Shown here: piece after piece, positions 23,961 through 39,417 of the stretch | Position numbering within the stretch: the first letter of the stretch is position 1 | Layout: each line of letters begins with the position of its first letter | Assembly (NCBI GenBank): GCA_016182485.1 | Contig: JACPGH010000003.1 | Location: forward strand, 70,331-134,330 | Direction: 5' to 3' | Source of the DNA: Candidatus Kaiserbacteria bacterium | GTDB taxonomy: Bacteria; Patescibacteriota; Minisyncoccia; Phycocordibacterales; Phycocordibacteraceae | DNA length: 64,000 bases | Notes under the pieces: model-generated | The model's input: only the letters and a program-made list of their open reading frames with translations | Database searches by the model: none | Told to the model about the DNA's origin: nothing | Position numbers and translations under genes: made by a program

Positions 23961-24359
23961 TCAACAATACAGCGAATAATCCGGGTAGTTATCCCGGACT
24001 TCGCCTTTCCACCAATCGGTCTCCCGTGAACCGCTCACATCTCCTTTGCCGTAGACGAGCAGGACACGCACGAGTTTCTTGTCCTTATGGACCGCGATGA
24101 TGCACCGATTGCCGGAGCCGTGCCGGGATTCTTTCGTGCCGGCGACGCGGAACTCGGTCTTGCAAATCAAAATATTTTTTCTGTCCACGATCGTCTCGAC
24201 GTAGTTATTGATGCCGATAAGCGTTTCGATGCGTTTCAGCTCCTCCTCTACAGCGCGCCAGGTAATGTCCCACGCTCCTTTATATTTCTTACGGAAAGAG
24301 GAGATGAAATGGCGCTCGGCATATTTGGACACCTCGACGCCATAAGGGTCAGTAGACAT
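23961..24359 (-). CDS. putative toxin, RelE/ParE-superfamily-like
   Basis: C-terminal NRCIIAVHKDKKLVRVLLVYGKGD resembles the RelE/ParE YRLIYRV...VYILRVGHRKDVY core; downstream of and overlapping the HTH-Panacea gene. Confidence 0.35.
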   Translation of the reverse strand: MSTDPYGVEVSKYAERHFISSFRKKYKGAWDITWRAVEEELKRIETLIGINNYVETIVDRKNILICKTEFRVAGTKESRHGSGNRCIIAVHKDKKLVRVLLVYGKGDVSGSRETDWWKGEVRDNYPDYSLYC

Positions 24360-25116
24360 ACTCCGGATCTTGCTGGGTGATGAGCTCGTAGGGAATCACC
24401 TCGTCCGGAGCGCACAGTTTGTAAGGCAGCTGCTCGTGCGTGAAGTTCACGATTTCCTGCGTTCTCTTGCGCTTCCACTTCGTGCCGATTTTTTGGATAA
24501 GCTCCTTTTCGCCAGGTTCAAGCAGGCCCAATTTTTCTTGCTCTGCGCCTTCGCTTATCTGCACGAGAATCGCATCGCCTTTGTGATCGAGCGTTATTTT
24601 GCCGTCTTCTTCCAGTTCAGCAACGGCGCGAAAGTACGGATCGGGTACCGGCCCGTATGCGCGGCGAAGATACTGCATGCCGCTCATACTTTCCAAATTT
24701 TCGTAATACCACGCGAAGTCAGCGAGGTAGAGCAGTTTCGCGAGCTTCGTTTTCGGAATTTTCCCGTCGTCCGCCGAAGATTTCGCGGTACGCAGGAATG
24801 CAAGCACCATCTGCTTATACTTTTCGTAATTCGGAATAATCGCATTCGAAAACTCCTCAATTGAAATGCCAAGCAAAGAGCAGAGTCTTTTCGCTTCCGG
24901 CAGGGTCATGTCACGGGCGCCTCTCTCCACCGCCATATACGACTGGCGGGAAAGTCCGATTTTTTCGGCCGCTTCCGACTGCGACAGGCCGCGCTCAAGG
25001 CGCAGCGCCTTGATTAACGACCCGTATTTGGTGCTCATATCTCTATTGTGCATAAACTGTGTATAAAATGCAAACAGGATATGTTGATAATATAGACATA
25101 CGCATGATATAATCAT
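24349..25116 (-). CDS. XRE-HTH + Panacea (DUF4065) domain antitoxin-like protein
   Basis: N-terminal HTH_3 (LRLERGLSQSEAAEKIGLSRQSYMAVERG); C-terminal KLAKLLYLADF...YGPV matches the DUF4065/GepA signature. Confidence 0.65.
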   Translation of the reverse strand: MIISCVCLYYQHILFAFYTQFMHNRDMSTKYGSLIKALRLERGLSQSEAAEKIGLSRQSYMAVERGARDMTLPEAKRLCSLLGISIEEFSNAIIPNYEKYKQMVLAFLRTAKSSADDGKIPKTKLAKLLYLADFAWYYENLESMSGMQYLRRAYGPVPDPYFRAVAELEEDGKITLDHKGDAILVQISEGAEQEKLGLLEPGEKELIQKIGTKWKRKRTQEIVNFTHEQLPYKLCAPDEVIPYELITQQDPEYVY

Positions 25117-25278
25117 GAAACAGATTTAAGAAATAGGTAATAGCACGAGGCCGTAGGGCCGTTCAATAAATGTGAAGAAAGTGTTAAAGTGATGCTTTTC
25201 TCCACCCTTATTTTTCGCGGGGGATTCTTTTTGAAATGGAATGGGCGGAAAACGGGGCTCGGTCGGGCTATGTGCATT

Positions 25279-25315
25279 ATATTACACGATTGTAATATGT
25301 TGCAAGTTGCAATAT
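25279..25315. promoter_or_regulatory. clustered short palindromes in divergent promoter region (candidate operator)
   Basis: ATTACA-cga-TTGTAAT followed by TTGCAA-g-TTGCAA, 13 bp upstream of the XRE start. Confidence 0.3.
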
Positions 25316-25327
25316 ACTGCATAGCAT

Positions 25328-25531
25328 ATGGCGTCAGGAAAAAAATTAGGAGAAAATCTAAGAAAGCTCCGGCTGCGAAGGAAAATGTCGCAAGGAGACC
25401 TTGCGGCCGCCTTGAATGTGGATAGAGCATATATAAGCAATATTGAAAACGGTCGAATGAACCCCACGCTTTCAACCTTGGAAAAAATAGCTGGGGCCTT
25501 AGGAATTTCTAGTAGTGAATTGCTAAAATGA
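25328..25531 (+). CDS. small XRE-family HTH regulator (controller C-protein-like)
   Basis: 67 aa HTH_3; stop codon 1 nt before the start of the 1603-aa gene. Confidence 0.6.
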   Translation: MASGKKLGENLRKLRLRRKMSQGDLAAALNVDRAYISNIENGRMNPTLSTLEKIAGALGISSSELLK

Positions 25532-25532
25532 C

Positions 25533-28500
25533 ATGGCAAGATATCGCACACGATTTGACGCAAAAGCGTATTGGGCAACCAAACCTTGGTGCACAGTCTG
25601 CAAGAAGCACAAAGTTAAAGATGGTGCGGTGTGCTCTGAGTGTAAAAAAGAAGCTATGAAGCAACAACGCGAAATTAATAGAAATAAAGAATCAATCGCG
25701 GACATTCCAGCTGCAGTGGAAGTTCAGGTTTCAGAACCACGAAAAAAGCGCATTTCTAATCTTTCTGCTGAGGCGCAGAATAAAGTCATTCGACTCTTTA
25801 CATACTTGGAAAAAGCTCTCGCCATCGATGATTCCATCGTTCGAGATTTTCGTACTACTTCAGCAGCACCCTCACCATGGTGGCTCGCTGATTATCCAAC
25901 GGATCTTGAGAACCTGACCATCCGGCCTTTTGATACTGAAAAAACTCCTGAAGGAGTACAAGCAACTTCGTGGCTCAAGGTAGAAAAGAAAAACATCAAA
26001 GCTGCACCTGAATTGCCGGACCAACTTAAAGAATGGATTGATGACGTAAATCCACTGCAGGAACCGACTGTTAAAGAAAAGATTGATCGCAAAGTCCTAT
26101 TTACAGATTACAAGGATCGGGAGAAAGAATTCAGAAATTTCCGAAAAGATTATAGGCAAGGAGATGGTGTGCCTGAGAGCTTGAAAGATTGGGTGACGAT
26201 TTTGCCAAATAAGTTACCCGAAATTATCAGTGTGAGATATGAGCCCGATTATTGGGTAGGCCACACAGAACTTACAGAGTTACTTGATGGATACACCAAA
26301 AACGATTGGAAGCCATGGGCAGAGCAGGTGAAGAAAGTTTATAAAGCAAATCTTCTCTACGATCAGCTATACGCCCTCCGTCTTCTTTTGAAAAACGAGG
26401 GAGATAACTATGAATTACTCTTAGGCCAAGGCATCTTGACTTGGCAGCATCAGGGAGTGGGTACAATCTACACCCCAATTTTTCTTAGTCCTCTTACACT
26501 CGATTTTGACGCTTCAAAAAGAACGATTAAGATCAACCCCGACCCCATGTTCAGGAATTTCGTAGAGACATCAGCACTTTACGAGACAGACAATCCAGCT
26601 GAAATGGATCTCGTCACATGGGGAGACACAATCAACGCCAACCCTTTTGATTTTTGGCATCTTGAGACACTCAAAGGTCAGGCACGAACACTCATTAACT
26701 ATGTCTCTCCGTATGGCGAAGATAAGTTCACCGATCAAATTATCTCAGCTCCTACCGCGTCACAGAATCCGAGTATCTGGAATGCACCAGTGATATTTGC
26801 TCGAAAGCGAACAAACGATATGTGGTCAAAGTATGCGGCCACTATTCGCAAAGACATCGAACAGTACGGGATTGAAGCGACTGAGTTCATCACTGATCTT
26901 GTCGGCGAATATGACGAGGTTTCCGTTAAGCTTAACGGCGGATCTGGAGAGAAAATGGAAAGTGACAGCATATCTATCCCAGAATCAGAGCTCCATTTTC
27001 CATTGCCTTGGAATGATGAGCAGAAAAGGATCGCAGAAAGGCTAGATGCAAACTATGGTGTCGTAGTAAAGGGGCCGCCGGGAACTGGAAAAAGTCATAC
27101 CATCGCAAACTTAATTGCCCGCTTCTTAGCAGAAGGCAAGAGCGTTTTAGTCACATCTCAAACAAGTAAGGCTTTGGAGGTATTGCGTGACAAGCTACCC
27201 GAAAACATCAGAAGTCTTGCCGTATCTCAGTTACAACAATCTGCGAAGCGAGACGACATACTCCAACAGTCAATTGGTGAAATTAGTTCTAATCTTGGCG
27301 AACGTGACACTAAATTTAGTGAAGCTCGAGCGGAAAATATTCGTAGAGAACTAAAGAGAGTAAGAGAAGAAAAAGCTGCTCTCGCGGCAAAGATACGACA
27401 GTACATCCTAACCGATTCATCGGAAAAGTTGATTATTGAGGGAGAAGAGATTAAACCTATCGATGCTGCAAAGTTTGTCGATAAGAACAAAAACCATAAG
27501 GCAATCGCCTGGTTTACTGATAAGGTCCCATTCGACGCCGATCCTAAATTTACTGAGGAAGATTTGCAGGAGCTATATGATATCGCTCGAGCTGTAGAGG
27601 CCGTAGATCGTACTCTCTATAAGGAAGACTTACCTGATCCATCGATCCTTCCAAATGAGGACGTGGTACTTAGCGCCTTTGCCTCGTATCGCGATTTCAG
27701 CGCGAAATCAAAATATTCAACAAATGGAGCGTTCAGCGAAGCGAAGATTGATCAAGAAAAACTTGGTCAACTGTGGGAACTTCTACATAAAGCCAAAAAG
27801 GTGTTGATGTCGATCAATAAAAATTACGAACAGGAAATATTTAACGCGTGTGCAATTAGTCAGAATGAGCGTGAGAAGTGGTCGTCTATCCTCTCAAAAA
27901 TCTCAGAGAAAATTCGGATCACTGCTAAAGGAAAAAACAGCACGATTGGTCACGTCATCTCTGGTCAGTCAAACCTTTCCATACATGATCTGCGGGAGGC
28001 GGCAGAAGCTTTGTATGCAAAAACATCAAAGGGCCAGCTGGGAACGTTCAGTAGAATGCTCCTATCTGGAAACGCAAAACGAATCCTTGAGACCTATAAA
28101 GTTGATGGGGTTGAACCTGATAACCCAGAGAGGGCAGAAATTCTGCGAAATTCTATACTTGTTGAAGAAGCAGAACGTGATATTAAGATTCTTCTCGAAC
28201 AGGGCCTTTCAACTATCAAGAACCAGCCTGAAATCGATGTCGATCATCTCGATATGATTCAGCTCGAAGTATTTGTTTCAGGTCTTCAGAGATTGGTAAA
28301 TTACCACGCCGACTTTTCAGCTATTGATTCTTGCTTTAATGAAGTGAAGGAACTTTCCGACTTCTCATTCACGAAGAAAGAAGAGATTGAAACTGCTATT
28401 GAACTAACTGCATCACATGCGGCTTCTTTCGAGCTCAAGAACCTAGAGAAGTCATTCACTGAATGGGAAGACTCAATCCGATCATCTGTGAATTTCCGTA

Positions 28501-30344
28501 TACAGCATGCTATCGTTGATGATCTTACTCAGGCAATCGCAAAACGTAACTCTACGGGATGGAAAAACTGTGTCGAGGAGCTTGATTTGCTTGTCGCGAA
28601 GAAAGAAAAGGCAATCAGACTTAGTGAGTTGTGCGATAAGCTTAGAAAGCAAGTACCTCGGCTTTGTGAGGAGATTATTGAGCTTGCCGATCAGAAACAG
28701 AGATTTGATTGCCCGGAAAATCTACTCGTTGCATGGAAAGTTGCTCGACTTGAATCGTGGCTCGACAGCATTCATGACCATGACGACATTGATACTTTGC
28801 AGGACCAGCTTGAACGTCTAAGCAAAAAGGAATTCGAGCTTAATTCCGAGCTTGTAACTGTGCTTGCTTGGCAGCGTCAAATCGACAAAGTTACCAAACG
28901 CCAACGCGATGCTTTGATGGCTTGGTCTGACGCAATGAAAAAGTACGGTAAGGGACTCGGAAAATACGCGAACAAATGGCTCAACTCGGCTCAACAGTCC
29001 CTCAAGGAAGCAAAAAATGCAGTTCCAGTTTGGATCATGCCCTTGCACCGGGCAGCTCAGATGTTCTCGGATCCTACTCCGGGTATGTTCGACGTAGTGA
29101 TTTTCGACGAGGCGAGTCAGTGTGATATTCGTGGTCTAACTATCGGATATCTCGGTAAGAAATTACTCGTTGTGGGCGATGATGATCAAATTAGTCCAGC
29201 TGGAATCTTTCAGGATCTAGAAAAGACATTCGAGCTCATTTCTCGATTCCTCTTCGATATTCCTCATAAAGACAATTTTTCAATTACCTCAAGTCTATTT
29301 GATCTCGCAAAAATCCGCATGCCGAACCTGATTCAACTAAATGAGCATTTCAGATGTGTTCCGGACATCATTGGTTTTAGTAATCACTATATTCCAGGAT
29401 ATAACCACAAAATTCAGCCGCTCCGTCATCCTAATCCAAAAGGTCTTCTTAAGCCTGCGCTTGTGCCAAAATTAGTAGAAGGTGGGTATCAAAACACCAA
29501 TAACAAAGTAAACGAACCTGAAGCAAAGGCGATTGTCGAGAAGCTTGTAGAGCTTCTTGAAGATCCGAATTACCAGAAGCGGCCGGATGGCCGTCTCTGC
29601 ACCTTTGGGATTATTTCTTTGCTTGCAGAGGACCAAGCAAAATACATCAAAGATTTAATTTTGAAGCATCCGAAGATCGGAGAGAAGATAATCGAAGAGA
29701 GAAAGATTATCTGTGGAGATGCATATGCCTTCCAAGGCGATGAGCGTGACGTAATGCTTTTGTCTATGGTAAGAGCGCTTGACCCGAACAATCTGAATGA
29801 TACAGTTGCACCTCTTATCGACAAAGGGGCAGCACAGCGCTTCAATGTGGCAGCTACTCGCGCACGCGATCAAGTATTTCTCTTTCATTCCATTCCTTTG
29901 GAACAATTCCGAAATCAAAACGATTGGCGCTTCAAGCTCCTCAATTGGTACTACGATCCAAAGAAAGAAGAAATTAAAGCGGGTCGTGAAGCGCTCAAGA
30001 GAGAATTCGATTCAGGTAGAGCGTCACAATTCTCGTACGAAGTCGGGAATCTTATCCTGGATAAAGGCTATCGGGTCTTGCCTGAGTATCCGCTGATTGG
30101 TTACCGTATTGATCTTGTTGTGCAGGGTGCCGAAGCTCGTCTTGCGGTCGAATGTGACGGGGATCAATATCACACGCTCGAAAATTGGGAAGAGGATCAA
30201 ACACGTGAACGTCAGCTACGTCGTGCTGGTTGGGAATTCTGGCGCGTAACCGGCAGTTCCTTCTATCGCCATAAAGAAAAAGCACTCTATAGTCTTTGGA
30301 AAAAGCTCGATGAACTTGGGATCAAGCCGATAATTGATTCTTAA
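25533..30344 (+). CDS. DUF4011 + superfamily-1 (Upf1-like) helicase + C-terminal DUF559/Vsr-like endonuclease, Hhe-like defence protein
   Basis: N-terminal Cys4 ribbon CTVCKK...CSECKK; DUF4011-like LLLGQGILTW block; Walker A GPPGTGKSHT; Walker B VIFDEASQ; C-terminal GYRIDLVV...ECDGDQYH DUF559 motif. Confidence 0.8.
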   Translation: MARYRTRFDAKAYWATKPWCTVCKKHKVKDGAVCSECKKEAMKQQREINRNKESIADIPAAVEVQVSEPRKKRISNLSAEAQNKVIRLFTYLEKALAIDDSIVRDFRTTSAAPSPWWLADYPTDLENLTIRPFDTEKTPEGVQATSWLKVEKKNIKAAPELPDQLKEWIDDVNPLQEPTVKEKIDRKVLFTDYKDREKEFRNFRKDYRQGDGVPESLKDWVTILPNKLPEIISVRYEPDYWVGHTELTELLDGYTKNDWKPWAEQVKKVYKANLLYDQLYALRLLLKNEGDNYELLLGQGILTWQHQGVGTIYTPIFLSPLTLDFDASKRTIKINPDPMFRNFVETSALYETDNPAEMDLVTWGDTINANPFDFWHLETLKGQARTLINYVSPYGEDKFTDQIISAPTASQNPSIWNAPVIFARKRTNDMWSKYAATIRKDIEQYGIEATEFITDLVGEYDEVSVKLNGGSGEKMESDSISIPESELHFPLPWNDEQKRIAERLDANYGVVVKGPPGTGKSHTIANLIARFLAEGKSVLVTSQTSKALEVLRDKLPENIRSLAVSQLQQSAKRDDILQQSIGEISSNLGERDTKFSEARAENIRRELKRVREEKAALAAKIRQYILTDSSEKLIIEGEEIKPIDAAKFVDKNKNHKAIAWFTDKVPFDADPKFTEEDLQELYDIARAVEAVDRTLYKEDLPDPSILPNEDVVLSAFASYRDFSAKSKYSTNGAFSEAKIDQEKLGQLWELLHKAKKVLMSINKNYEQEIFNACAISQNEREKWSSILSKISEKIRITAKGKNSTIGHVISGQSNLSIHDLREAAEALYAKTSKGQLGTFSRMLLSGNAKRILETYKVDGVEPDNPERAEILRNSILVEEAERDIKILLEQGLSTIKNQPEIDVDHLDMIQLEVFVSGLQRLVNYHADFSAIDSCFNEVKELSDFSFTKKEEIETAIELTASHAASFELKNLEKSFTEWEDSIRSSVNFRIQHAIVDDLTQAIAKRNSTGWKNCVEELDLLVAKKEKAIRLSELCDKLRKQVPRLCEEIIELADQKQRFDCPENLLVAWKVARLESWLDSIHDHDDIDTLQDQLERLSKKEFELNSELVTVLAWQRQIDKVTKRQRDALMAWSDAMKKYGKGLGKYANKWLNSAQQSLKEAKNAVPVWIMPLHRAAQMFSDPTPGMFDVVIFDEASQCDIRGLTIGYLGKKLLVVGDDDQISPAGIFQDLEKTFELISRFLFDIPHKDNFSITSSLFDLAKIRMPNLIQLNEHFRCVPDIIGFSNHYIPGYNHKIQPLRHPNPKGLLKPALVPKLVEGGYQNTNNKVNEPEAKAIVEKLVELLEDPNYQKRPDGRLCTFGIISLLAEDQAKYIKDLILKHPKIGEKIIEERKIICGDAYAFQGDERDVMLLSMVRALDPNNLNDTVAPLIDKGAAQRFNVAATRARDQVFLFHSIPLEQFRNQNDWRFKLLNWYYDPKKEEIKAGREALKREFDSGRASQFSYEVGNLILDKGYRVLPEYPLIGYRIDLVVQGAEARLAVECDGDQYHTLENWEEDQTRERQLRRAGWEFWRVTGSSFYRHKEKALYSLWKKLDELGIKPIIDS

Positions 30345-30348
30345 GGAT

Positions 30349-31902
30349 ATGCTAATTTCGAAAACTTTTTTTCAGCACTGCTTACATTGTCCAAAAGACG
30401 CGTGGCTGAAATTACACAAACCTGAGTTACGAGGCCATTTTGTACCATCTGAATTTGAGCTACACCTGATGGAGCAAGGGAATGAAGTAGAATCGTACGC
30501 CCGCAACTTATTCCTGGGAGGTATTGAAGTCTCGACCACGGGCAAACATGCAGTCGAAGATACCGTACGGCTTATGGCAGAACATATACCAGTAATTTTC
30601 CAAGCTACTTTTATTGTTGATGGATTTATTGTTCGCAATGATGCGTTGAAATGGAACCCAGAGACTAATCTTTGGGATTTGTACGAAGTCAAGGGGACCA
30701 ACTCAATGAGACTCGACCAGAAGGAACGCGACCATGTAACCGATATTGCCTTTCAAGCTTCAGTGATGCGACACGCTCGCGTACCTCTCGGGCATTGCTA
30801 TTTAGTACATTTAAATAAAGAGTATGTTCGTGCCGGTGATCTCGATATCGAGTCTCTTTTCTCCATAGACGATGTGACCGATGCTGTGAATGTTCGTATA
30901 CCCGAAATTGAGCCGAAGATGGAGGCTGCAAAGGAATATTTAAATCGAGTGACTGAACCGCCCGGAGGCTGTGAGTGCGTATATTCCACTCGACGTAATC
31001 ACTGCACCACGTTTCAGTATTCAAACGGGCACGTTCCAGAATACTCCGTCCACGACATTTCCCGCATTCACAAGACCAAGCTCGCTAATTTGATCGAGCA
31101 AAATATTTTTGCCCTTGATGGTGTTGATCCAGAATTGCATCAACTCTCAGAGAAGCAGGGCAACCAAGTGCGTGCCCATCAAACGCAGAAGCCCGTCATT
31201 GATGCAGATGAGATATCTCAGTTTCTCGAATCTTTACAATTTCCACTCTATTTTTTCGACTACGAAGCGTATGCGCCAGCTATACCCGCGTTCAATGGGT
31301 ATAGCCCTTACAAATTTATTCCGTTTCAATTCTCTCTACATATCCTTCGTGAGCCTGGTGGCGAACTCGAGCATGTAGAATTCCTACATGAGGAATTTTC
31401 AGATCCATCAGAGGCCGTTGCTTTAAAGTTGAGAGAAATCTATTCCGAAGGCTCAGTTATCGTTTGGCACGAGACGTTTGAAAAGACGTTTATAAATGCG
31501 AATATAGCTCAACGACTGCCACATCATGCTGAGTTCTTCGAGAAGTTTAACGGTGCTATGGCTGATTTAGAGAAACTCTTTGTTGCTCAGCATTACATTC
31601 ATCATGGGTTTCGGGGGAGAACCTCAATCAAAAATGTCTTGCCCGTGCTTGCGCCAGGATTCTCATATGCCGAACTGGAAATCCATGAAGGTGGTCAAGC
31701 CTCGAATGAATGGTGGCGCATGATAGCACCGATAACTTCGCTGGAGGAGAAAAAGGAAATTGCAAAAAACCTTAAGGAATATTGCGGCTTAGATACTAAG
31801 GCCATGTATGCTATTTGGAAGCACTTGTTTGCTCTGGTGAATCAGATTGTTGAGATGCCAAGCGGAGCTAGCACAGAGTTGTCAAAATCGTCAAAGGTGT
31901 AA
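30349..31902 (+). CDS. DUF2779-like protein (predicted PD-(D/E)xK nuclease fold)
   Basis: N-terminus LISKTFFQHCLHCPKDAWLKLH resembles DUF2779 start; SD AAGGA 6 nt upstream; start 4 nt after helicase stop. Confidence 0.55.
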   Translation: MLISKTFFQHCLHCPKDAWLKLHKPELRGHFVPSEFELHLMEQGNEVESYARNLFLGGIEVSTTGKHAVEDTVRLMAEHIPVIFQATFIVDGFIVRNDALKWNPETNLWDLYEVKGTNSMRLDQKERDHVTDIAFQASVMRHARVPLGHCYLVHLNKEYVRAGDLDIESLFSIDDVTDAVNVRIPEIEPKMEAAKEYLNRVTEPPGGCECVYSTRRNHCTTFQYSNGHVPEYSVHDISRIHKTKLANLIEQNIFALDGVDPELHQLSEKQGNQVRAHQTQKPVIDADEISQFLESLQFPLYFFDYEAYAPAIPAFNGYSPYKFIPFQFSLHILREPGGELEHVEFLHEEFSDPSEAVALKLREIYSEGSVIVWHETFEKTFINANIAQRLPHHAEFFEKFNGAMADLEKLFVAQHYIHHGFRGRTSIKNVLPVLAPGFSYAELEIHEGGQASNEWWRMIAPITSLEEKKEIAKNLKEYCGLDTKAMYAIWKHLFALVNQIVEMPSGASTELSKSSKV

Positions 31903-31983
31903 ACCTATTTACAACTTTGACATGGATCATTGTAGTGGCGCGCTGCCGTTTGAAAAATGAAGATTTTATGAGATTATTGAATT

Positions 31984-34900
31984 ATGTCCAGGAAGGCAGT
32001 TGAAACCTACATTTCCAGCGTTGACGAGAAATTAAAGACAGGGCAAGCTCGCGAACATGCCTATCGCCCGTGTTTTGAAGCTTTAATTCATGCACTTGAT
32101 CCAAAACTCAAAATCGTAAACGATCCCTCGCGTAGCGAGCACGGCAACCCCGATTTTGTCTTTTTACGCGGAGATATCACAGCAGGGTATGCGGAGACGA
32201 AGGATCTCAACGATGATCTTGATAAAACTGAGAAATCGGAACAAATGAAACGCTACCTCGGCTACTCGAATCTCATTTTGACCGATTATCTCGAATTTCG
32301 GTTTTTCAGAAACGGCTCACGCTACGGCGAGCCGATTCGTATCGCAACTGTATCCGGCGGAAAACTCGAAGAGAGGACAGAAACATACGACGAACTTGCA
32401 ACTGCGCTCGCCGACTTTCTCGCTGGTACTCCCGAGCCGATCAAGAACGGAAAGCGTCTTGCCGAGATCATGGGCGGTAAAGCGCGGCGCATTCGTGACA
32501 ATGTACATCGTTTTCTCACAGATAAAGCCGACAGCGATACTGACCTTCTACGAATATATGAGTCGATCAAGAAAATGCTCGTCCACGACCTCCCGCTTGA
32601 GGCGTTTGCCGATATGTACGCGCAAACGCTCGTCTACGGTCTTTTTGTCGCACGCTATCACGACGACTCCGTCGATACATTCTCTCGCTCCGAGGCACGC
32701 GACCTCGTGCCGGAATCGAATCCTTTTTTGCGTCAATTCTTCAACCACATTGCTGGACCGGACTTCAACAAACGCCTGCGCTATATCGTGGACGAATTGT
32801 GCGTGGTGTTCGCCACGGCGAATGTGCGTGAATTGATGGAGCAATATTTCAAGCTGGATTTATGGGGAAAGGAACATGGGGGGCCAGATCCAGTTATTCA
32901 TTTCTACGAGGATTTCCTCAAAGAGTACGACGCGGAGCTGCGCAAGAAAATGGGCGCGTACTACACACCACTCCCGGTTGTGCGCTTTATCGTTCGCGCT
33001 ATAGATCATGTGCTCAAGACGGATTTCGGACTTGGGGATGGCCTCGCCGATACAACCAAACTCTCCGATGGAAGGCACAAGGTGCAAGTGCTCGATCCGG
33101 CCGTCGGCACCGGCACGTTCATCAGCGCTGTCATTCGCAACATCTACGAGCGATTTGTGAAGCAGGGTCAAAAGGGCCGATGGCCGACCTATGTCCACTA
33201 CGACCTCCTGCCGCGCATCCACGGCTTCGAGCTAATGATGACCGCCTACACCATCGCGCACTTGAAGCTCTCCATCGCGTTCAAACAAACAGGCTTCACC
33301 ATTTTTAACAAGCGGCTTGGCATCTATCTCACTAACTCGCTCGAAGAAGCGGGACCGCAAACCGACATGTTCTCACTCGGCTTCGCGCAGAGCATCGCGG
33401 AGGAAGCAAAGCAGGCGGCGGTTATTAAGAACGAGACTCCAATCATGGTTGTCCTCGGTAACCCGCCGTATTCAGGAGAATCGAGTAACGCATTTTACAA
33501 GGAACACGATGCTTACAAGATCGAGCCCACGGGCGGCAAGCTCAAGGAGCGCAACAGTAAATGGATCAATGATGATTATGTAAAATTCATTCGGCTTGCA
33601 GAAAGTTTGGTAGAGAAGAACGGCGAGGGTGTGGTCGCAATGATAACAGCACACGGCTATCTCGATAATCCTACATTCCGCGGAATGCGTTGGCATCTAA
33701 TGCAGACGTTCGAGAAAATTTACGTACTCGATTTGCACGGAAACGCAAACAAAAAGGAAAAGGCCCCTGATGGAAGCGAAGACAAGAATGTCTTTGACAT
33801 TATGACTGGTGTCTCTATTTTGATCGGAGTAAAGCACAAGAAATCCGCGGATAATCTTGCAACTGTCTTTCGCGCCGATTGTTTTGGCGCTCGAAAATTA
33901 AAGATAGATTTTTTGGAATCAAATTCGCTCGATACAATTTCTTGGCAAAAACTCAGACCATCCGCTCCCAATTATGAATGGGCAGCAAATGACGGCGAAG
34001 TAAGTGACGAGTATAAAAGAGGATTCTCTGTAACTGAACTCTTCACAGTTTCTAGTGTCGGTATCGTCACGTCGCGAGACGATTTTGTCATAGATATGGA
34101 CAAGCATACCCTCAGCAGACGAATTGAGGGATTTTTACAATCTGCAACGACCCAAGAAGCTCTCTCGAAATATGGTCTTAAAGAAAACCTGAAGTGGAAG
34201 GCAGTACAGGCTCTCAAACATAAGTACGACGAAGCACGCGTTATTCCAGTGAGTTACCGTCCCTTTGATTCTCGCTTCATCTACTACCATGACGATTTCA
34301 TTGAGAGACCGCGCGGAGAGGTAATGCAGTATTTTGTCGGTCACGAAAACATAGGTCTTGTCACAAACAAACGCATTGAAGGACCTCGCAAGTTTGCAGA
34401 TGCATTTTTATCCGATTGCGTTACTGATGCACGACGCGTTTCTTTAAAAGAGACGAACTATATTTTCCCACTTTATCTCTATGCAGAGGACGGTACGCGG
34501 GTATCAAATTTGAGCCAGGGCATCATGACACAGATCGCGAATTCGCTTGGTAGCGAACCGTCTCCGGAGAATATCTTTTATTATGTTTACGCAGGCCTTC
34601 ACTCACCGTCGTATCGAGAGAAACACAACGATTTTTTGAAAGCCACTTTCCCGCGCGTTCCTTATCCTAAAGACAAAAATCAATTTATGGGGCTGGCAGC
34701 GTTGGGCAAGGAATTACGCGAGCTTCACTTGCTCGAATCGCAGAAGGTGCGCAAGTACATAACATCATATCCTGAAAGCGGCTCGAATGTCGTCGAAAAG
34801 ATTGCTCGCAAGGGCGACGGAGTATATATCAACGAAACGCAACACTTCGGCGGTGTGCCGGATATTGCATGGAACTTCTATATTGGCAGCTACCAGCCTG

Positions 34901-35028
34901 CTCAGAAATGGCTCAAAGACCGCAAAGGTCGCACGCTCACGAACGAGAACATCGAGCACTACCAAAAAATCATCGTCGCCCTTGTCGAGACAGATCGAAT
35001 AATGAAAGAAATAGACAAAGCAGTATGA
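31984..35028 (+). CDS. MmeI-like Type IIG/IIL restriction-modification enzyme (nuclease + N6-adenine MTase + TRD)
   Basis: N-terminal PD...E-x-K (GNPDFVF...GYAETKD); MTase motif I DPAVGTGTF; motif IV NPPY (VVLGNPPYSG); about 350-aa C-terminal region. Confidence 0.7.
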   Translation: MSRKAVETYISSVDEKLKTGQAREHAYRPCFEALIHALDPKLKIVNDPSRSEHGNPDFVFLRGDITAGYAETKDLNDDLDKTEKSEQMKRYLGYSNLILTDYLEFRFFRNGSRYGEPIRIATVSGGKLEERTETYDELATALADFLAGTPEPIKNGKRLAEIMGGKARRIRDNVHRFLTDKADSDTDLLRIYESIKKMLVHDLPLEAFADMYAQTLVYGLFVARYHDDSVDTFSRSEARDLVPESNPFLRQFFNHIAGPDFNKRLRYIVDELCVVFATANVRELMEQYFKLDLWGKEHGGPDPVIHFYEDFLKEYDAELRKKMGAYYTPLPVVRFIVRAIDHVLKTDFGLGDGLADTTKLSDGRHKVQVLDPAVGTGTFISAVIRNIYERFVKQGQKGRWPTYVHYDLLPRIHGFELMMTAYTIAHLKLSIAFKQTGFTIFNKRLGIYLTNSLEEAGPQTDMFSLGFAQSIAEEAKQAAVIKNETPIMVVLGNPPYSGESSNAFYKEHDAYKIEPTGGKLKERNSKWINDDYVKFIRLAESLVEKNGEGVVAMITAHGYLDNPTFRGMRWHLMQTFEKIYVLDLHGNANKKEKAPDGSEDKNVFDIMTGVSILIGVKHKKSADNLATVFRADCFGARKLKIDFLESNSLDTISWQKLRPSAPNYEWAANDGEVSDEYKRGFSVTELFTVSSVGIVTSRDDFVIDMDKHTLSRRIEGFLQSATTQEALSKYGLKENLKWKAVQALKHKYDEARVIPVSYRPFDSRFIYYHDDFIERPRGEVMQYFVGHENIGLVTNKRIEGPRKFADAFLSDCVTDARRVSLKETNYIFPLYLYAEDGTRVSNLSQGIMTQIANSLGSEPSPENIFYYVYAGLHSPSYREKHNDFLKATFPRVPYPKDKNQFMGLAALGKELRELHLLESQKVRKYITSYPESGSNVVEKIARKGDGVYINETQHFGGVPDIAWNFYIGSYQPAQKWLKDRKGRTLTNENIEHYQKIIVALVETDRIMKEIDKAV

Positions 35029-35474
35029 TTGATTACGCACTTATCATAGGTGTCGTCTCAACAGGAGCGGCTGCGGTGGCCGCCTATTATGCCTACAAAG
35101 CGTACATAACAAACAATAGTCCGAAGCTAGTGGTCGAGGCACCATTCAATAGCTCGCTTCAACTCCGCAATGTGGGAACTGATGCTGCGAAAAACATCAA
35201 GGAACCGACCGGTATGTTTCGAGATATGCCGAGTGAGATATGGAATTTTACCGGCCCGATTGATTATTTGAGAGTTAAAAGTCCAGGTATTTCCCGGCAA
35301 ATAGATTTTCACGATGAGAAAAGAATCAAGCCATCGGACTCATCGATTGTTCGATTTGAATACGAAAATTCGGACGGAACCAGATTCTTTTCTGAAATCA
35401 AAGTCGAGCGAGGGCCTGCAACACAGCAGCTTTGGTTTGCAACACCAGTCCTAGTGAATTGGGGTAAATGCTAG
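35025..35474 (+). CDS. small membrane-anchored protein, last gene of cassette
   Basis: ATGA start/stop overlap with the MTase gene; single N-terminal TM helix (IIGVVSTGAAAVAAYYAY). Confidence 0.4.
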   Translation: MIDYALIIGVVSTGAAAVAAYYAYKAYITNNSPKLVVEAPFNSSLQLRNVGTDAAKNIKEPTGMFRDMPSEIWNFTGPIDYLRVKSPGISRQIDFHDEKRIKPSDSSIVRFEYENSDGTRFFSEIKVERGPATQQLWFATPVLVNWGKC

Positions 35475-35754
35475 GAGTCTACGCGTCCCCTTTGCCTTTA
35501 TTGGCGGGATGTGCGCGCACGGGCTGGGGCAAGCACATATGGATTTGAGGCCTCGGGCATTTCCGCGACGGGATCTGGCCCACTGGTGAGCGCCGCCGCT
35601 CTCTTGCAAGTCTAAAAGCGCGTTTTTATACACTTTCGTGATTGCATTGCACGAAGAATCTTGTTACTTTATATGCACAATGCAACGGAGGAACTTTAGA
35701 TAGCCGCCGCGAAGCCTGCTCGCAAGAGTGGGTATTCGTGGCGGCTTTTCTATT

Positions 35755-35825
35755 GCCTCCTTAGCTCAATGGTAGAGCACGCCTCTGAAAAGGGCGAGAA
35801 AGAGGTCCGATTCCTCTCGGAGGCA
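35755..35825 (+). tRNA. tRNA-Phe (anticodon GAA)
   Basis: GCTC/GAGC D-arm, anticodon stem CGCCT/GGGCG, loop CTGAAAA; one mismatch at acceptor 7:66. Confidence 0.7.
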
Positions 35826-35828
35826 CCC

Positions 35829-35900
35829 GCCCTCGTAAGCTAATGGATAAACTGTCGGGCTTCTATCCCGATCTTGGAGGTTCGAATCCTCCCGAGGGCA
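35829..35900 (+). tRNA. tRNA-Arg (anticodon UCU)
   Basis: GCCCTCG/CGAGGGC acceptor, anticodon stem TCGGG/CCCGA, loop CTTCTAT, T-arm GGAGG-TTCGAAT-CCTCC. Confidence 0.7.
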
Positions 35901-35956
35901 CAGTCCCATCGCAAACGAATTAGGACAGAAACCACATGACTACATGAAAGTCAGTC

Positions 35957-36035
35957 CCCTCTAATCTCTAATTCGCGCGCCGTGCCCGCCGAAGCTTATG
36001 CGGAGGCGGGAATAGTAGAATAGTTTGCTGGCAGC
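35957..36035 (+). repeat. intergenic repeat element copy 1 (about 75 bp, GC hairpin + AATAGTAGAATAGTT)
   Basis: TCTCTAATTCGCGCGCCGTGCCCGCCGAAGCTTATGCGGAGGCGGGAATAGTAGAATAGTT. Confidence 0.6.
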
Positions 36036-36141
36036 AGCCGGGGAGGCGGATTTGGTACAATTGATGCAGGATGCTCGATTCGAAACATAAGAAATTGCTC
36101 GTTGCGGTTATCGGACTAGCCTTATCGGCGGTGCGTTTTTC

Positions 36142-36489
36142 GTGCTCAAGTCGGATTCCGGTGACAAAGAACGAGAGGGCGGCATAACGGGCGTCGCAAT
36201 GCTCGGGCCCACGTGTCCGGTAATGCAAGATCCGCCCGATCCGCAGTGCGCCGACAAACCATACAAGACAGCGCTCGTGATAACTACCGACGACGAAGCG
36301 CGCGTGCTCAAGACTATCTATACCGACGTGAATGGCGCGTTCCGCGCCGAATTGCCGCCCGGTACCTATGCCATTCGCTCCGCCGCGGCGGCGAACATCC
36401 TGCCATACTGCTCGACCCAAGGTCCTGTGACGGTCGCGGCGGGAGCATTTTCCAACGTCGCGGTTTCCTGCGACACCGGAATCCGCTAA
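36142..36489 (+). CDS. hypothetical small protein (GTG start)
   Basis: 115-aa ORF downstream of repeat copy 1; no recognised domain. Confidence 0.3.
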   Translation: MLKSDSGDKEREGGITGVAMLGPTCPVMQDPPDPQCADKPYKTALVITTDDEARVLKTIYTDVNGAFRAELPPGTYAIRSAAAANILPYCSTQGPVTVAAGAFSNVAVSCDTGIR

Positions 36490-36497
36490 CCATCCCG

Positions 36498-36576
36498 CTA
36501 TCTTCTCTAATTCGCATGCCGCGCCCGTCCGTAGCTGAAAGCGAAGGAGGGAATGGTAGAATAGTTGGCTCGCAGC
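36498..36576 (+). repeat. intergenic repeat element copy 2
   Basis: CTATCTTCTCTAATTCGCATGCCGCGCCCGTCCGTAGCTGAAAGCGAAGGAGGGAATGGTAGAATAGTT. Confidence 0.6.
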
Positions 36577-36605
36577 CTCGTGATTATTTGCTGCAGTAGT
36601 CCCGT

Positions 36606-36680
36606 GTATCTTCTCTAATTCGCACGTCGTGCCCGTCCGTAGCTTCAAGCGAAGGAGGGAATAGGCGAATAGTTGCAGAG
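36606..36680 (+). repeat. intergenic repeat element copy 3
   Basis: GTATCTTCTCTAATTCGCACGTCGTGCCCGTCCGTAGCTTCAAGCGAAGGAGGGAATAGGCGAATAGTT. Confidence 0.6.
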
Positions 36681-36706: not shown

Positions 36707-37342
36707 TTGTTAATGAAAGCCGTCGCTTTTATTGATGCTTCGAATCTGTCATATGGCGGCCAGAAGTCGTTAGGGTGGAGTATTGACTATGCGAAGCTCA
36801 GGGAGTATCTGACTGAAAAATATGGGATTGAGAAGGCATATTACTTCGGAGGAATTGAAATTCATGGACACCCGTTCGATTATTTGAAGTATGATTCTGT
36901 GCCAATAAGCCAAATCGAGAGATATCTTTCTGATTTGATAACGCGTGCCGGGCCAAAAATGACTGAAGCACAATTGGTTCTCGCCGACAGGCATCTCAAA
37001 AGAGTTCGCTTCTATAGGAAGCTAGCGGAATTTGGATATCGTCTGGTGTTAAAACCAGTAAAGTCTTATGAAGACGATGATGGGAACAGGCGCCGGAAAG
37101 CAAATTGCGATGTGGATATGGCTTTCTACATGATGAAAGAAATTGACTCTTATAATAGAGCCGTTGTTTTATCAGGCGATGGAGATTTTTTGCCAGTACT
37201 AAAACACCTGAGATCAATCGGTAAAGAAGTAATCATTCTCGCTCGAAGTCCCCGGACTGCGAAAGAAATAAAGCAATTTGCGGGAGCCGATTTTAGGGAT
37301 TTTGAATATTTAAGGGAACGTATCAAGCAGAAAGACGTGTAA
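36707..37342 (+). CDS. NYN/LabA-like (PIN-related) domain protein
   Basis: AFIDASNL N-terminus, NCDVDMAF and VLSGDGDF acidic motifs characteristic of LabA/NYN. Confidence 0.65.
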   Translation: MLMKAVAFIDASNLSYGGQKSLGWSIDYAKLREYLTEKYGIEKAYYFGGIEIHGHPFDYLKYDSVPISQIERYLSDLITRAGPKMTEAQLVLADRHLKRVRFYRKLAEFGYRLVLKPVKSYEDDDGNRRRKANCDVDMAFYMMKEIDSYNRAVVLSGDGDFLPVLKHLRSIGKEVIILARSPRTAKEIKQFAGADFRDFEYLRERIKQKDV

Positions 37343-37537: not shown

Positions 37538-38107
37538 ATGAAAGACGGCCGGGCAAAGGTGCTGGAATTCTATCGGCAGAGGCGGCGCATGCCCTCCTAC
37601 CGCGAGATCATGCGGCTTATGGGCTACCGCTCGCTCGCGTCGGCGCAGTGGCTCGTGAAGAGTCTCGCAGAAGCCGGGGTGGTGGCCAAAGATAGGGCGG
37701 GCAAGCTTATCCCGAAGCATCCGTTCGGAGAAACGAAACTGCTCGGCGTTGTGGAAGCGGGGTTCCCCTCCGCGGCTGAAGAAGAATTGCTCGACACCAT
37801 CAGCTTCGACGAATATCTCACGCCGAATAAGGAAGCGAGCTACATCTTGAAAGTGAAGGGCGACTCGATGCAGGAGGCCGGCATTTGCGAAGGCGACATG
37901 GTGATCGTCGAGCGGCGTCAGACCTTCAAGCCGGGGCAGATCGTCGTCGCGTCGATTGACGACGAGTACACGATGAAATATCTGCGCAAGAATCAGCGCG
38001 GCTATTATCTCGAACCGGCGAACGCGAAGTACCAGCCGATCTATCCCAAAGACGGCGAGACGCTCGCTGTGGAAGCGGTGGTCACGGCCGTGGTGCGCAA
38101 ATATTAG
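37538..38107 (+). CDS. lexA: LexA repressor
   Basis: N-terminal wHTH, S24 peptidase motifs VKGDSM and catalytic K in IVERRQ...; 189 aa. Confidence 0.85.
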   Translation: MKDGRAKVLEFYRQRRRMPSYREIMRLMGYRSLASAQWLVKSLAEAGVVAKDRAGKLIPKHPFGETKLLGVVEAGFPSAAEEELLDTISFDEYLTPNKEASYILKVKGDSMQEAGICEGDMVIVERRQTFKPGQIVVASIDDEYTMKYLRKNQRGYYLEPANAKYQPIYPKDGETLAVEAVVTAVVRKY

Positions 38108-38109
38108 AC

Positions 38110-39417
38110 ATGGCGTGGGGCAGTGTACAGGCGTATCCCCGGGCGATCCTCCACATAGACGGAGACGCTTTCTTTGCCGCTTGCGAGGTCGCCAAGGACC
38201 CAGCGCTGCGCGGCCGGCCGGTCATCACCGGCAAGGAGCGCGGGATAGTCTCCGCCGCGACCTACGAGGCGAAGGCTCGCGGCGTCACGCGCGGCATGAC
38301 TCTCTCGGAGGTAAAGAAAGTTTGCCCGGACGCTGTCATCCTGCCCTCCGACTACGAGACGTACAGCCTATTCTCCAATCGGATGTACGCAATCGTGCGG
38401 CGCTACACGCCCGCGGTAGAGGAGTACAGCATTGACGAGTGCTTCGCTGACCTCACCGGCTTGCGCCGCTCTTTGCGCTTGTCCTACCCGCAGATGGCCG
38501 AACGGATAAAGCTCGAATTGGATAGCGAGCTCGGCATGACCTTCTCTCTCGGCCTCTCGGCGACCAAGACGCTAGCCAAGATCGGCTCGAAATGGAAGAA
38601 GCCTTCGGGCCTGACGCTTATCCCGCTCTCCGCCGCTGAGAGCTATCTCAAGCAGTTGTCGGTCGAGAAAGTCTGGGGCATCGGCCCGAACACCACGGCT
38701 TTTCTCAATAAGCACGGCGTGAGAACGGCCGCCGATTTCGCCAAGCGGGACGAAACGTGGGTACGGGGGCAGCTCTCGAAGCCGTTTTATGAGACGTGGC
38801 GGGAACTGCGCGGGGAAGTCGTCTTCGAGCTCGACGCGATCGGCCGGGAGAGCTACCAATCGATCAGTAAGACGAAGACCTTCACGCCGCCCTCGACCGA
38901 CCCGGCCTTTGTGCTCTCGCAACTATCGAAGAACATCGAGAACGCGTGCATCAAGGCGCGCCGCTGGAATCTAGTTACCTCCCAAGTGGCGTTTTTCTTA
39001 AAAACGCAGGATCTCAAATATTATGGCTATGAGCTTGCGCTCTCGCACCCGACGAACGTGCCGCAGGATGTGCTCAAGGTTGTCTCCGAATATTTCAGAA
39101 AAGTTTTTAAAAAGAATACGCAGTATCGGGCGACGGGCATCACGCTCTTGAAGCTCGCTGAGAATCAGTCGCCGCAACTCGATCTCTTCGGGGCGGTAGA
39201 GGCGACGGGCAAGATCCAGAGAGTCCTCGAGAGCGTGGACGCGATATCCGAGCGATACGGGAAGCACGCGGTCTTTCTCGGTTCCTCCTTTCAAGCAATG
39301 ACGCACACGGCTCATCTCGGCGACCGCGGCGACACGGCCAAGCGCGTCACCGATCTCTTCAAGGGCGAGACCCGCCGCCAGCGCCTCGCCATCCCCATGC
39401 TCGGCGAGGTAAAATAA
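38110..39417 (+). CDS. dinB: DNA polymerase IV (Y-family)
   Basis: ILHIDGDAFFAACE catalytic start, SIDECFAD motif; immediately follows lexA. Confidence 0.85.
   Translation: MAWGSVQAYPRAILHIDGDAFFAACEVAKDPALRGRPVITGKERGIVSAATYEAKARGVTRGMTLSEVKKVCPDAVILPSDYETYSLFSNRMYAIVRRYTPAVEEYSIDECFADLTGLRRSLRLSYPQMAERIKLELDSELGMTFSLGLSATKTLAKIGSKWKKPSGLTLIPLSAAESYLKQLSVEKVWGIGPNTTAFLNKHGVRTAADFAKRDETWVRGQLSKPFYETWRELRGEVVFELDAIGRESYQSISKTKTFTPPSTDPAFVLSQLSKNIENACIKARRWNLVTSQVAFFLKTQDLKYYGYELALSHPTNVPQDVLKVVSEYFRKVFKKNTQYRATGITLLKLAENQSPQLDLFGAVEATGKIQRVLESVDAISERYGKHAVFLGSSFQAMTHTAHLGDRGDTAKRVTDLFKGETRRQRLAIPMLGEVK

Follow-up and report, generated by a model that had tools for sequence, protein, structure and literature searches.

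MmeI-family enzymes are the prototype of the Type IIL restriction-modification (RM) enzymes, and MmeI-specific Pfam models cover their N-terminal, helical, methyltransferase (MTase), target-recognition domain (TRD) and C-terminal regions. Type ISP enzymes combine an N-terminal nuclease with an SF2 motor. This motor is a RecA-like ATPase domain that lies within the same chain as the nuclease (10.1101/2021.01.06.425610). The Type IIL enzyme DrdV of Deinococcus wulumuqiensis (PDB 7lo5/7lvv) acts alone; its mechanism has been described, and its domains follow the order nuclease, helical connector, MTase and TRD, the same order as in the protein analysed here (10.1101/2021.01.06.425610). Two Borrelia enzymes, BBE02 and BBQ67, have been characterised: both work alone and are bifunctional, producing single-strand m6A as well as a barrier against foreign DNA (10.1101/375352). 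The bbq67 gene, carried on plasmid lp56, gives single-strand m6A and a restriction barrier by itself, methylation by Borrelia homologs alters the transcriptome, and no activity of the intact paralog BBH09 could be detected in culture (10.1101/375352).

Identity and family of the RM enzyme

The window, a stretch of 64,000 nt of a Candidatus Kaiserbacteria (CPR) chromosome, contained an unbroken open reading frame on the + strand with an ATG at 31984 and a stop at 35028. Its extent and domains were assigned as follows.

31984..35028, + strand: complete RM gene, 1014 aa (open reading frame, PADLOC, Pfam, best PDB match, identical NCBI protein)
31984..32433, + strand: N-terminal PD-(D/E)xK endonuclease domain, about aa 1-150 (invariant residues, DrdV profile and fold match)
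32434..32883, + strand: helical connector between nuclease and MTase, about aa 151-300 (AF2 helices 156-290; 70% identity among homologs)
32884..33843, + strand: gamma-class N6-adenine DNA MTase domain, about aa 301-620 (Pfam; invariant motifs I and IV)
33844..35025, + strand: TRD of the Type ISP/DrdV kind with a conserved helical C-terminus, about aa 621-1014 (Type_ISP_C; LlaBIII/LlaGI alignment)

The PADLOC model REase_MTase_IIG (PDLC03610) matched the protein at 951 bits. Pfam matches were Type_ISP_C at aa 685-1009 (280 bits), N6_Mtase at aa 305-560 and Eco57I at aa 412-581. At least 7989 database proteins matched at E <= 1e-20, and a 100% identical protein (P0001) is already held by NCBI as "N-6 DNA methylase [Candidatus Kaiserbacteria bacterium]". 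The observation is far beyond chance and, judged by these sequence matches, the family is very large and already known. The open reading frame very probably encodes an autonomous, single-polypeptide Type IIG/IIL RM enzyme of the DrdV-like family, to which the Borrelia lp56 enzyme also belongs.

DrdV (7lo5) was the best PDB match, at 1.4e-48 by sequence and 1e-79 by profile, and the two proteins are of similar length (1029 aa for DrdV vs 1014 aa). The AF2 model matched DrdV over its full length (Foldseek E 1e-44, about 1100 columns), and the next Foldseek matches were Type ISP enzymes (1e-39), BrxX (5e-14) and BpuSI (1.7e-12). Identity to DrdV in the fold alignment was only about 20%, and the TRDs of the two enzymes differ. 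The similarity of the N-terminal domain to that of DrdV was barely detectable by sequence; in the profile alignment the catalytic motif was matched to the DrdV motif PD...GYWESKD at a weak 10.4 bits.

The RM gene on plasmid lp56 of Borrelia burgdorferi B31 aligned over aa 4-1014 with 33.6% identity (E 5e-150). We infer from the plasmid, rather than from the locus tag, that this gene is bbq67. It is annotated as "type ISP restriction/modification enzyme", a name that the NCBI pipeline also gives to relatives. The Borrelia enzyme comes from a different phylum and is plasmid-borne, whereas the gene in the window is chromosomal, and the Borrelia specificities CGRKA and GNAAYG are not transferable at such divergence of the TRD.

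LlaBIII and LlaGI followed DrdV among the PDB sequence matches. Type ISP enzymes are homologous in their MTase and TRD/C-terminal half, which aligned with aa 301-980 at E 1e-40 by sequence and 5.6e-65 by profile. For LlaBIII and LlaGI, the homology begins at aa 221-301 of the Kaiserbacteria protein, corresponding to aa 588-842 of those enzymes, and runs through aa 979-980. Type ISP enzymes have 1406-1578 aa and a RecA-like ATPase motor, whereas the protein of 1014 aa has none; no ATPase or helicase domain was listed by Pfam in the 1014 aa even at E <= 10. It has the MTase and Type_ISP_C module of a Type ISP enzyme and lacks the ATPase motor between nuclease and MTase. Given this lack and the short chain, a translocation and collision mechanism is not expected.

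The first-pass annotation had called the protein an MmeI-like single-chain enzyme. The class was right: the MmeI family shares enzyme class and domain logic with the protein, which is a Type IIG/IIL enzyme with nuclease, MTase and TRD in one chain. Membership of the MmeI family proper was not borne out by Pfam, PDB or Foldseek. MmeI_Mtase was the single MmeI-named Pfam model listed at E <= 10, a borderline match at aa 360-534 (28.2 bits vs a cut-off of 27). Neither the PDB matches by sequence and by profile nor the best 50 Foldseek matches included MmeI. The TRD is of the Type_ISP_C kind, unlike that of the MmeI family. Its closest relatives are DrdV, the Borrelia lp56 enzyme and the MTase-TRD half of Type ISP enzymes.

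Conserved residues and proposed mechanism

The reading frame and all motifs named in the first-pass annotation were recovered in place. The stretch GNPDFVF...AETKD contains the catalytic motif, P56-D57, 13 residues and E71-T72-K73 (nt 32149-32202). Motif I, DPAVGTGTF (residues 371-379, nt 33094-33120), precedes motif IV, NPPY (residues 493-496, nt 33460-33471), which is the gamma-class order. Residues D57, E71 and K73 and motifs I and IV were invariant in an alignment of 16 homologs reaching down to 44% identity, and D57, E71 and K73 were also invariant in a second alignment of 44 homologs. The nuclease-domain residues E24 and R28 were likewise invariant in both alignments (A1 and A2). That the triad, E24 and R28 do not vary points to selection for cleavage. 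The predicted fold of the nuclease domain is alpha/beta, with strands at 58-62, 65-72, 97-100 and 104-109; the AF2 model had a pLDDT of 83 and low confidence at about residues 48-54, beside the catalytic D57.

The least conserved part of the protein among homologs was aa 621-870, with 40-47% identity vs 70-75% in the MTase and connector. This variable core presumably sets sequence specificity, and a TRD that is the most variable region fits the expectation of diversifying specificity.

The mechanism proposed here is modelled throughout on characterised relatives, with the site, single-strand methylation and cut distance assigned by homology. The variable TRD (about aa 621-870) would read a short asymmetric site, and the gamma-class MTase would flip one adenine out and methylate one strand with S-adenosylmethionine. 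This one-strand adenine methylation would serve as the mark of host DNA. Where invading DNA lacks this methylation, several enzyme molecules bound at their sites would assemble, and their N-terminal PD-ExK domains (D57, E71, K73) would cleave the two strands a fixed distance away. Cleavage would take place without ATP and without translocation, and the enzyme would not need the neighbouring helicase module.

Genes upstream of the RM gene

As the first-pass annotation had noted, a helicase-nuclease gene and a gene for a second protein with a PD-(D/E)xK domain lie directly upstream on the same strand. They are preceded by a small HTH gene.

25328..25531, + strand: XRE-type HTH protein, 67 aa (open reading frame; PADLOC Control_protein, 63.7 bits)
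25533..30344, + strand: SF1 helicase (AAA_11/AAA_12), 1603 aa (Pfam, PADLOC, NCBIfam)
30349..31902, + strand: DUF2779 protein, 517 aa from the ATG at 30349 (Pfam DUF2779, 112.7 bits)

In the helicase, a Cys4 zinc-ribbon-like motif lies at the N-terminus and a Vsr/DUF559-like nuclease (MTES_1575) at the C-terminus. Homologs with 60-90% identity occurred across CPR lineages. Hhe, PDC-S37 and ProA likewise combine a large SF1 helicase with a C-terminal Vsr/DUF559-like nuclease, and similarity to them was distant. PDC-S37 matched at 191.8 bits over aa 497-1594 only (PADLOC). The equivalog cut-offs were not passed for ProA (221.6 bits, cut-off 1500; NCBIfam) or for Hhe (100.8 bits, cut-off 2000; NCBIfam), the latter scoring 92 bits in PADLOC. 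The upstream helicase differs from all three in its distinct N-terminal 490 aa and in having DUF2779 and a small HTH protein as its usual partners. A literature search on Hhe, PDC-S37 and MTES_1575 yielded no more than an entry listing Hhe as a DUF4011 defence gene.

The start of the DUF2779 protein was placed by alignment to seven homologs. The protein is predicted to be a Cas4-like PD-(D/E)xK nuclease fused to an RNase H-like 3'-5' exonuclease, a domain reading based on PMC13621843 and PMC3985635. Its invariant residues were D103, E118, K120, C213, C215, C224, D309, E311 and D411 (numbering from the TTG at 30334).

The first-pass annotation had suggested from this linkage that the RM enzyme plays an accessory translocation or processing role with the helicase and second nuclease. 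The survey of homologous loci spoke against such a partnership. No SF1 helicase was found in any of 88 RM-homolog loci (flanks to 10 kb where the contig allows), and a Type IIL enzyme was present at none of the 11 informative helicase loci, seven of which had DUF2779. The metagenome helicase scan returned 10 loci, and several with too little downstream DNA were left out of the denominator. DUF2779 occurred in two of the 88 RM-homolog loci (L034 and L063). Linkage of helicase and RM gene was confined to one organism, being found also in two further assemblies of it (L104 and L105). This organism is also present in samples SRR12113422 and SRR12113424. The same small HTH gene directly preceded the helicase homolog at two loci where the RM enzyme is absent (L009 and L011). 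The slot after DUF2779 was filled elsewhere by a 330-360-aa unknown protein, TerB_N, a Cu-ATPase and others, and RM homologs with 42-44% identity stood alone on Acinetobacter, Pseudomonas and Thioclava plasmids. The third-position GC content (GC3) was 0.42-0.44 in the helicase and DUF2779 genes, 0.54 in the RM gene and 0.69-0.78 in core genes. The helicase and DUF2779 genes, with the HTH gene, are a separate, conserved and mobile module and not partners of the RM enzyme, which lies on the Candidatus Kaiserbacteria chromosome in a defence island that is low in GC and was acquired horizontally. The helicase module often adjoined serine recombinases.

Several apparent cases of shared gene order were rejected. 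At the closest RM homologs (L004-L008), synteny was not supported, the upstream gene of L005 being unrelated to DUF2779, and the 186-aa gene downstream of the closest homologs was unrelated to the open reading frame in the window. NYN proteins shared 28% identity over 60 aa only and are a common CPR family. Among proteins of about 330 aa that follow DUF2779 or the RM gene (L010, L011, L063 and L007), only those of L010 and L011 were related.

The four genes are co-oriented, with gaps of 1 nt between HTH and helicase (the HTH stop falling 1 nt ahead of the helicase start), 4 nt between helicase and DUF2779 and 81 nt, at 31903-31983, between DUF2779 and the RM gene. No convincing terminator was found among the helicase, DUF2779 and RM genes. 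With short gaps, a shared strand and no such terminator, the three genes may be co-transcribed in this organism. A promoter and terminator scan of 24-37 kb showed no excess over shuffled sequence (counts of 20 vs 18.6 and 15 vs 13.4). The candidate promoter TTGAAA-16-GATTAT at 31950-31977, just ahead of the RM start, therefore counts as no more than a hint.

Downstream of the RM gene, one candidate gene was noted.

35025..35474, + strand: candidate open reading frame, 149 aa (overlaps the RM stop by 4 nt, ATGA; hydrophobic N-terminal helix)

This frame was also predicted by gene callers in the two further assemblies of the organism. Its non-overlapping part had no homolog in the 88 RM loci and no Pfam or PADLOC match. 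A longer version (ORF201, 34869-35474) gave tblastn matches at many RM loci, confined to its first approximately 50 codons; since these codons read the conserved C-terminal part of the RM gene in another frame, the matches were rejected as artefactual, and the plausible start is 35025.

Alternative readings of the locus

In a composite system of this lineage, the RM enzyme would act jointly with the upstream proteins, for instance by making the first sequence-specific cut, after which the helicase and exonucleases would unwind and degrade the fragments, standing in for RecBCD-type degradation. Consistent with this are the common orientation and gaps of 1, 4 and 81 nt, the absence of a clear terminator between DUF2779 and the RM gene, the repetition of the arrangement in L104 and L105 from the same organism, and the DUF2779 genes that adjoin RM homologs in L034 and L063. 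However, the pairing was not conserved (0/88 and 0/11), other loci have unrelated genes following DUF2779, the two parts differ in GC3 (0.42-0.44 vs 0.54), and both DrdV and the Borrelia lp56/bbq67 enzyme act alone; the two DUF2779 cases fit ordinary defence-island clustering. Such a system is very unlikely. The chance is slimmer still that the enzyme was recruited, in the Kaiserbacteria lineage, to a four-gene unit with the HTH regulator, the SF1 helicase/Vsr-like nuclease and the Cas4-like/DEDD exonuclease (DUF2779). The NCBI name "N-6 DNA methylase" would also suit a protein whose main activity is that of an orphan or epigenetic N6-adenine MTase and whose nuclease is silent, and the Borrelia homologs offer precedents in a methylation-altered transcriptome and in BBH09, which lacks detectable activity (10.1101/375352). 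This is improbable given D57, E71, K73, E24 and R28, invariant in 44 and 16 homologs, and a gene position within a low-GC island among other defence-type genes.

The first-pass annotation had also raised a PglX-like methylation reader. Taken more broadly, the protein would read or write methylation in the manner of PglX/BREX or of a split Type ISP enzyme and would depend on separate ATPase partners, its motor being the upstream helicase. In BREX, PglX is encoded together with PglZ, BrxC and BrxL. Its MTase-TRD half is indeed homologous to Type ISP enzymes and, more distantly and at the fold level, to BrxX/PglX, and a helicase gene does lie upstream. That helicase, however, is an SF1 protein (AAA_11/AAA_12) with a C-terminal nuclease. 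PglX models reached only 17-20 bits against cut-offs of 400-500 (PADLOC 19.9; NCBIfam BREX-1 16.9, cut-off 500, and BREX-2 16.7, cut-off 400), and PADLOC found no BREX or other known defence-system partner in the 16 neighbouring open reading frames scanned (about 20.7-41.7 kb). The protein keeps its own invariant nuclease triad, and co-occurrence with the helicase was again 0/88 and 0/11. The PglX-like reader was accordingly dropped, and the broader version is extremely improbable. The preferred reading is still the autonomous DrdV-like enzyme.

Implications

The analysis corrects the annotation of this gene to a DrdV-like enzyme with a Type ISP-type TRD, rather than a member of the MmeI family, PglX or a true Type ISP enzyme. 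Significance beyond annotation is small, the gene being a further Type IIL enzyme among the defences of a CPR bacterium. The neighbouring uncharacterised module of HTH, helicase-nuclease and DUF2779 proteins, with 60-90% conservation across CPR lineages, is the more interesting by-product. Were the four-gene unit real, cuts by the RM enzyme would give ends for helicase and exonuclease processing, a built-in stand-in for RecBCD-type degradation after restriction. In practical terms, the enzyme is a candidate for a new recognition specificity, and its methylation motif could help to bin Kaiserbacteria DNA and link it to its host in long-read metagenomes.

Identification of the restriction-modification enzyme

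The plus-strand ORF at 31984-35028 runs uninterrupted from its ATG at 31984 to the stop at 35028 and encodes a restriction-modification (RM) protein of 1014 aa. The motifs quoted in the first-pass annotation were all present: the nuclease motif GNPDFVF...AETKD (P56-D57, 13 residues, E71-T72-K73), motif I (DPAVGTGTF, residues 371-379) and motif IV (NPPY, residues 493-496), the last two in gamma-class order. Pfam Type_ISP_C matched the C-terminal region (residues 685-1009, 280 bits), and N6_Mtase and Eco57I were also matched. The PADLOC Type IIG REase-MTase model PDLC03610 scored 951 bits and four more PADLOC Type IIG models scored 153-357 bits. An identical protein is listed at NCBI as "N-6 DNA methylase [Candidatus Kaiserbacteria bacterium]", which places the window on a CPR/Patescibacteria chromosome. 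The family has very many members: at least 7989 of 8000 candidates scored belonged to it at E ≤ 1e-20.

The top PDB sequence match was DrdV (7lo5; 1.4e-48, and 1e-79 with a family profile), followed by the Type ISP enzymes LlaBIII and LlaGI; MmeI was not found in these sequence and profile searches. An AlphaFold2 prediction from 44 homologs, with a mean pLDDT of 83.2, matched DrdV over its whole length (approximately 1100 alignment columns, E 1e-44). LlaBIII and LlaGI came next (approximately 1e-39), then BrxX/PglX (5e-14), with CamA and BpuSI (1.7e-12) lower, and MmeI was absent among the best 50 structure matches. A tblastn search of plasmids returned a full-length match to a gene on Borrelia burgdorferi B31 lp56 (aa 4-1014, 33.6% identity). 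This plasmid carries bbq67; BBE02 and BBQ67 are bifunctional, place m6A on a single strand at the motifs GNAAYG and CGRKA, and form a restriction barrier (10.1101/375352). The RM protein is a DrdV-like single-chain Type IIG/IIL enzyme, a fresh example of an already-known group that takes in the Borrelia lp56 enzyme. The earlier description as MmeI-like therefore stands for a single-chain Type IIG/IIL RM enzyme and falls for the MmeI family proper, of which the protein is not a member: DrdV was the best match and MmeI_Mtase, at 28.2 bits, barely cleared its cut-off of 27, with no further MmeI-named Pfam model listed even at E ≤ 10.

Catalytic residues and alternative roles

Across 16 homologs, the most distant at 44% identity, E24, R28, P56, D57, E71 and K73 were invariant, as were D371, P372, A373 and G375-F379 of motif I and N493-Y496 of motif IV. 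D57, E71 and K73 were also invariant in a further set of 44 homologs. Loss of these D/E/K residues, named beforehand as counting against the RM reading, was not seen. This comparison was made against DrdV, not MmeI, because the nuclease domain is unobservable in the MmeI crystal structure (10.1101/2021.01.06.425610); the profile pairs "GNPDFV...GYxETKD" with DrdV "PDGTL...GYWESKD", a segment that scores only 10.4 bits.

Identity among homologs by region of the RM protein
Nuclease region: 53%
Connector region: 70%
MTase region: 75%
TRD (aa 621-870): 40-47%
C-terminal helices: 68%

These values fit a catalytic scaffold that is conserved and a recognition domain that diversifies.

The suggestion that the protein acts as a PglX-like reader was rejected, and the protein is not a BREX PglX: PglX models, whose cut-offs are 400-500 bits, scored 17-20, the 16 neighbouring ORFs scanned included no BREX genes, and the nuclease triad is conserved. 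A role in methylation alone is unlikely, given that the nuclease residues are invariant. A split Type ISP system was also rejected. Type ISP polypeptides have a built-in RecA-like ATPase domain (10.1101/2021.01.06.425610), whereas the helicase upstream of the RM gene is a separate protein that matches SF1 families and has a C-terminal nuclease, and the RM protein still has a nuclease domain of its own. It thus differs from true Type ISP enzymes in having no motor; the MTase-TRD module is common to both, which is why the NCBI pipeline labels DrdV-like enzymes "type ISP restriction/modification enzyme".

Beyond the observed domain architecture and conserved residues, we infer the site, strandedness and cut distance of the DrdV-like enzyme by homology to DrdV (10.1101/2021.01.06.425610). 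The TRD would bind an asymmetric site, and the enzyme would methylate one adenine on one strand only. Alternatively, where several unmodified sites are occupied, it would assemble into multimers whose domain-swapped nuclease domains would cleave at a set distance and need neither ATP nor translocation.

Composition and surroundings of the island

G+C content was 0.43-0.50 in the segment lying approximately between positions 24 kb and 36 kb, lower than the 0.55-0.60 of its flanks. The low-GC genes all look horizontally acquired, and the RM gene differs in GC3 from the helicase-DUF2779 pair.

Genes of the island and their GC3, with core genes for comparison
25328-25531, plus strand: XRE-type HTH protein, 67 aa, stop 1 nt before the helicase start
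25533-30344, plus strand: SF1 helicase, GC3 0.42
30349-31902, plus strand: DUF2779 protein, GC3 0.44
31984-35028, plus strand: RM enzyme, GC3 0.54
Core genes: GC3 0.69-0.78

Housekeeping content of the window included CTP synthase and scattered tRNAs, among others. The seven tRNA genes in 64 kb (2990-3191, 11218, 22396, 35754-35901, 63915-63988) include a tRNA-Ile with anticodon TAT, and tRNA-Phe and tRNA-Arg(TCT) adjoin without a spacer. A 25-nt imperfect direct repeat (22/25 matches; 23348-23372 and 35915-35939), with 12.6 kb from one copy to the other, encloses most of the island, its second copy lying 14 nt past tRNA-Arg(TCT); roughly 0.007 such pairs are estimated by chance in this 15.5-kb region. 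The stretch between the copies contains no integrase. A tandem array of 46-nt period (22425-22674) begins within the 3' end of tRNA-Gln(CTG) (22396-22467) and continues downstream for approximately 200 nt. Another tandem repeat, of 60 nt (22105-22266), falls within the end of ORF 20693-22342. The region 35956-36675, downstream of the tRNA-Phe/tRNA-Arg pair, holds three copies of a repeat of approximately 33-69 nt (TCTCTAATTCGC...GCCCGTCCGTAGC...). The 226-aa minus-strand ORF at 35968-36648 had no family matches and may not be a gene.

A 149-aa ORF (35025-35474, plus strand) with a hydrophobic N-terminal helix overlaps the RM stop by 4 nt (ATGA) and was predicted by gene callers in two further assemblies of the organism (L104, L105). 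It had no Pfam or PADLOC match, and none of 88 RM relatives had a homolog of it alongside. An antitoxin-type HTH_3 and SocA/Panacea-domain protein is encoded at 24349-25116 (minus strand); a copy on a Saccharibacteria contig (L049, 13416-14171) shares 70% identity with it and comes immediately downstream of an RM homolog with 55% identity. No toxin partner was identified. ORF 25113-25475, which overlaps the 24349-25116 gene on the minus strand, is probably not a real gene, since it collides with the plus-strand HTH gene. An NYN-domain (LabA-like) protein at 36707-37342 (plus strand) has counterparts near RM homologs on several CPR contigs (L004, L006, L028). They share only about 28% identity with one another and probably represent a multi-copy CPR family, not an RM partner. 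At 37538-39417 (plus strand), genes for a UmuD/LexA-like S24 peptidase and a Y-family DNA polymerase (IMS), separated by 2 nt, form a UmuDC-like pair with host-like GC3 (0.78).

The helicase module and its linkage to the RM gene

The upstream genes were as the first-pass annotation described them. The helicase-nuclease is a 1603-aa protein in which SF1 helicase domains (AAA_11/AAA_12) are joined to a Vsr-like nuclease (MTES_1575) at the C-terminus, and its gene is directly followed by the DUF2779 gene. Alignment with seven homologs placed the DUF2779 start at ATG 30349, 4 nt past the helicase stop. Residues invariant in these homologs were D103...E118-x-K120, a cysteine cluster (C213, C215, C224), and D309-x-E311 with D411, in agreement with published analyses in which DUF2779 proteins combine an RNase H-like 3'-5' exonuclease with a Cas4-like PD-(D/E)xK nuclease (PMC13621843, PMC3985635). 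The description as a second PD-(D/E)xK protein was thus correct.

The module at 25328-31902 (HTH, SF1 helicase with Vsr-like nuclease, usually DUF2779) recurs at L009-L022, L106 and L107, with the HTH-then-helicase arrangement also in L009 and L011. Its proteins are 60-90% identical across very different CPR lineages; helicase homologs in this range came from Kaiser-, Levy-, Woese- and Spechtbacteria, among others. Large serine recombinases and ParB-N6_N4 methyltransferase genes frequently flank it, and it looks like mobile-element cargo. It also looks like a relative, so far uncharacterised, of the defence genes Hhe, PDC-S37 and ProA, because its model scores fall far under their equivalog cut-offs.

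Linkage was examined around both RM and helicase homologs. On the RM side, 80 GTDB species-representative loci (tblastn) and 8 others gave 88 loci. None carried a relative of the SF1 helicase (sole match, 26% identity in L084), and DUF2779 occurred at two (L034, L063). The eight comprised five CPR loci with 68-73% identical RM homologs, where neither gene was a neighbour, and three plasmid RM homologs that sit alone. In L034 (13321-18553, minus strand) a DUF2779 gene (49% identical to that of the window) follows a 1240-aa helicase of the SNF2 family where the window has the SF1 helicase. These two genes run convergent to an RM homolog of 56% identity. DUF2779 thus seems to partner different helicase families. 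On the helicase side, 11 loci had enough downstream DNA. DUF2779 followed the helicase in seven, mostly directly (two genes intervene in L014), and a Type IIL enzyme in none. The genes after DUF2779 varied: a 330-360-aa unknown protein, TerB_N, a Cu-ATPase, or DUF3800 with AbiV.

The proposed linkage was accordingly not borne out (0/88 and 0/11), and the arrangement recurs only in L104 and L105, from the same organism. The 81-nt gap before the RM gene contains no convincing terminator, a promoter scan gave no signal above that of shuffled sequence, and the gene may be co-transcribed with the upstream genes in this organism. Lineage-specific functional coupling of the RM enzyme with the helicase and exonuclease module is very improbable. 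The genes are best read as two defence-type units that are independent of each other and adjoin in one island.
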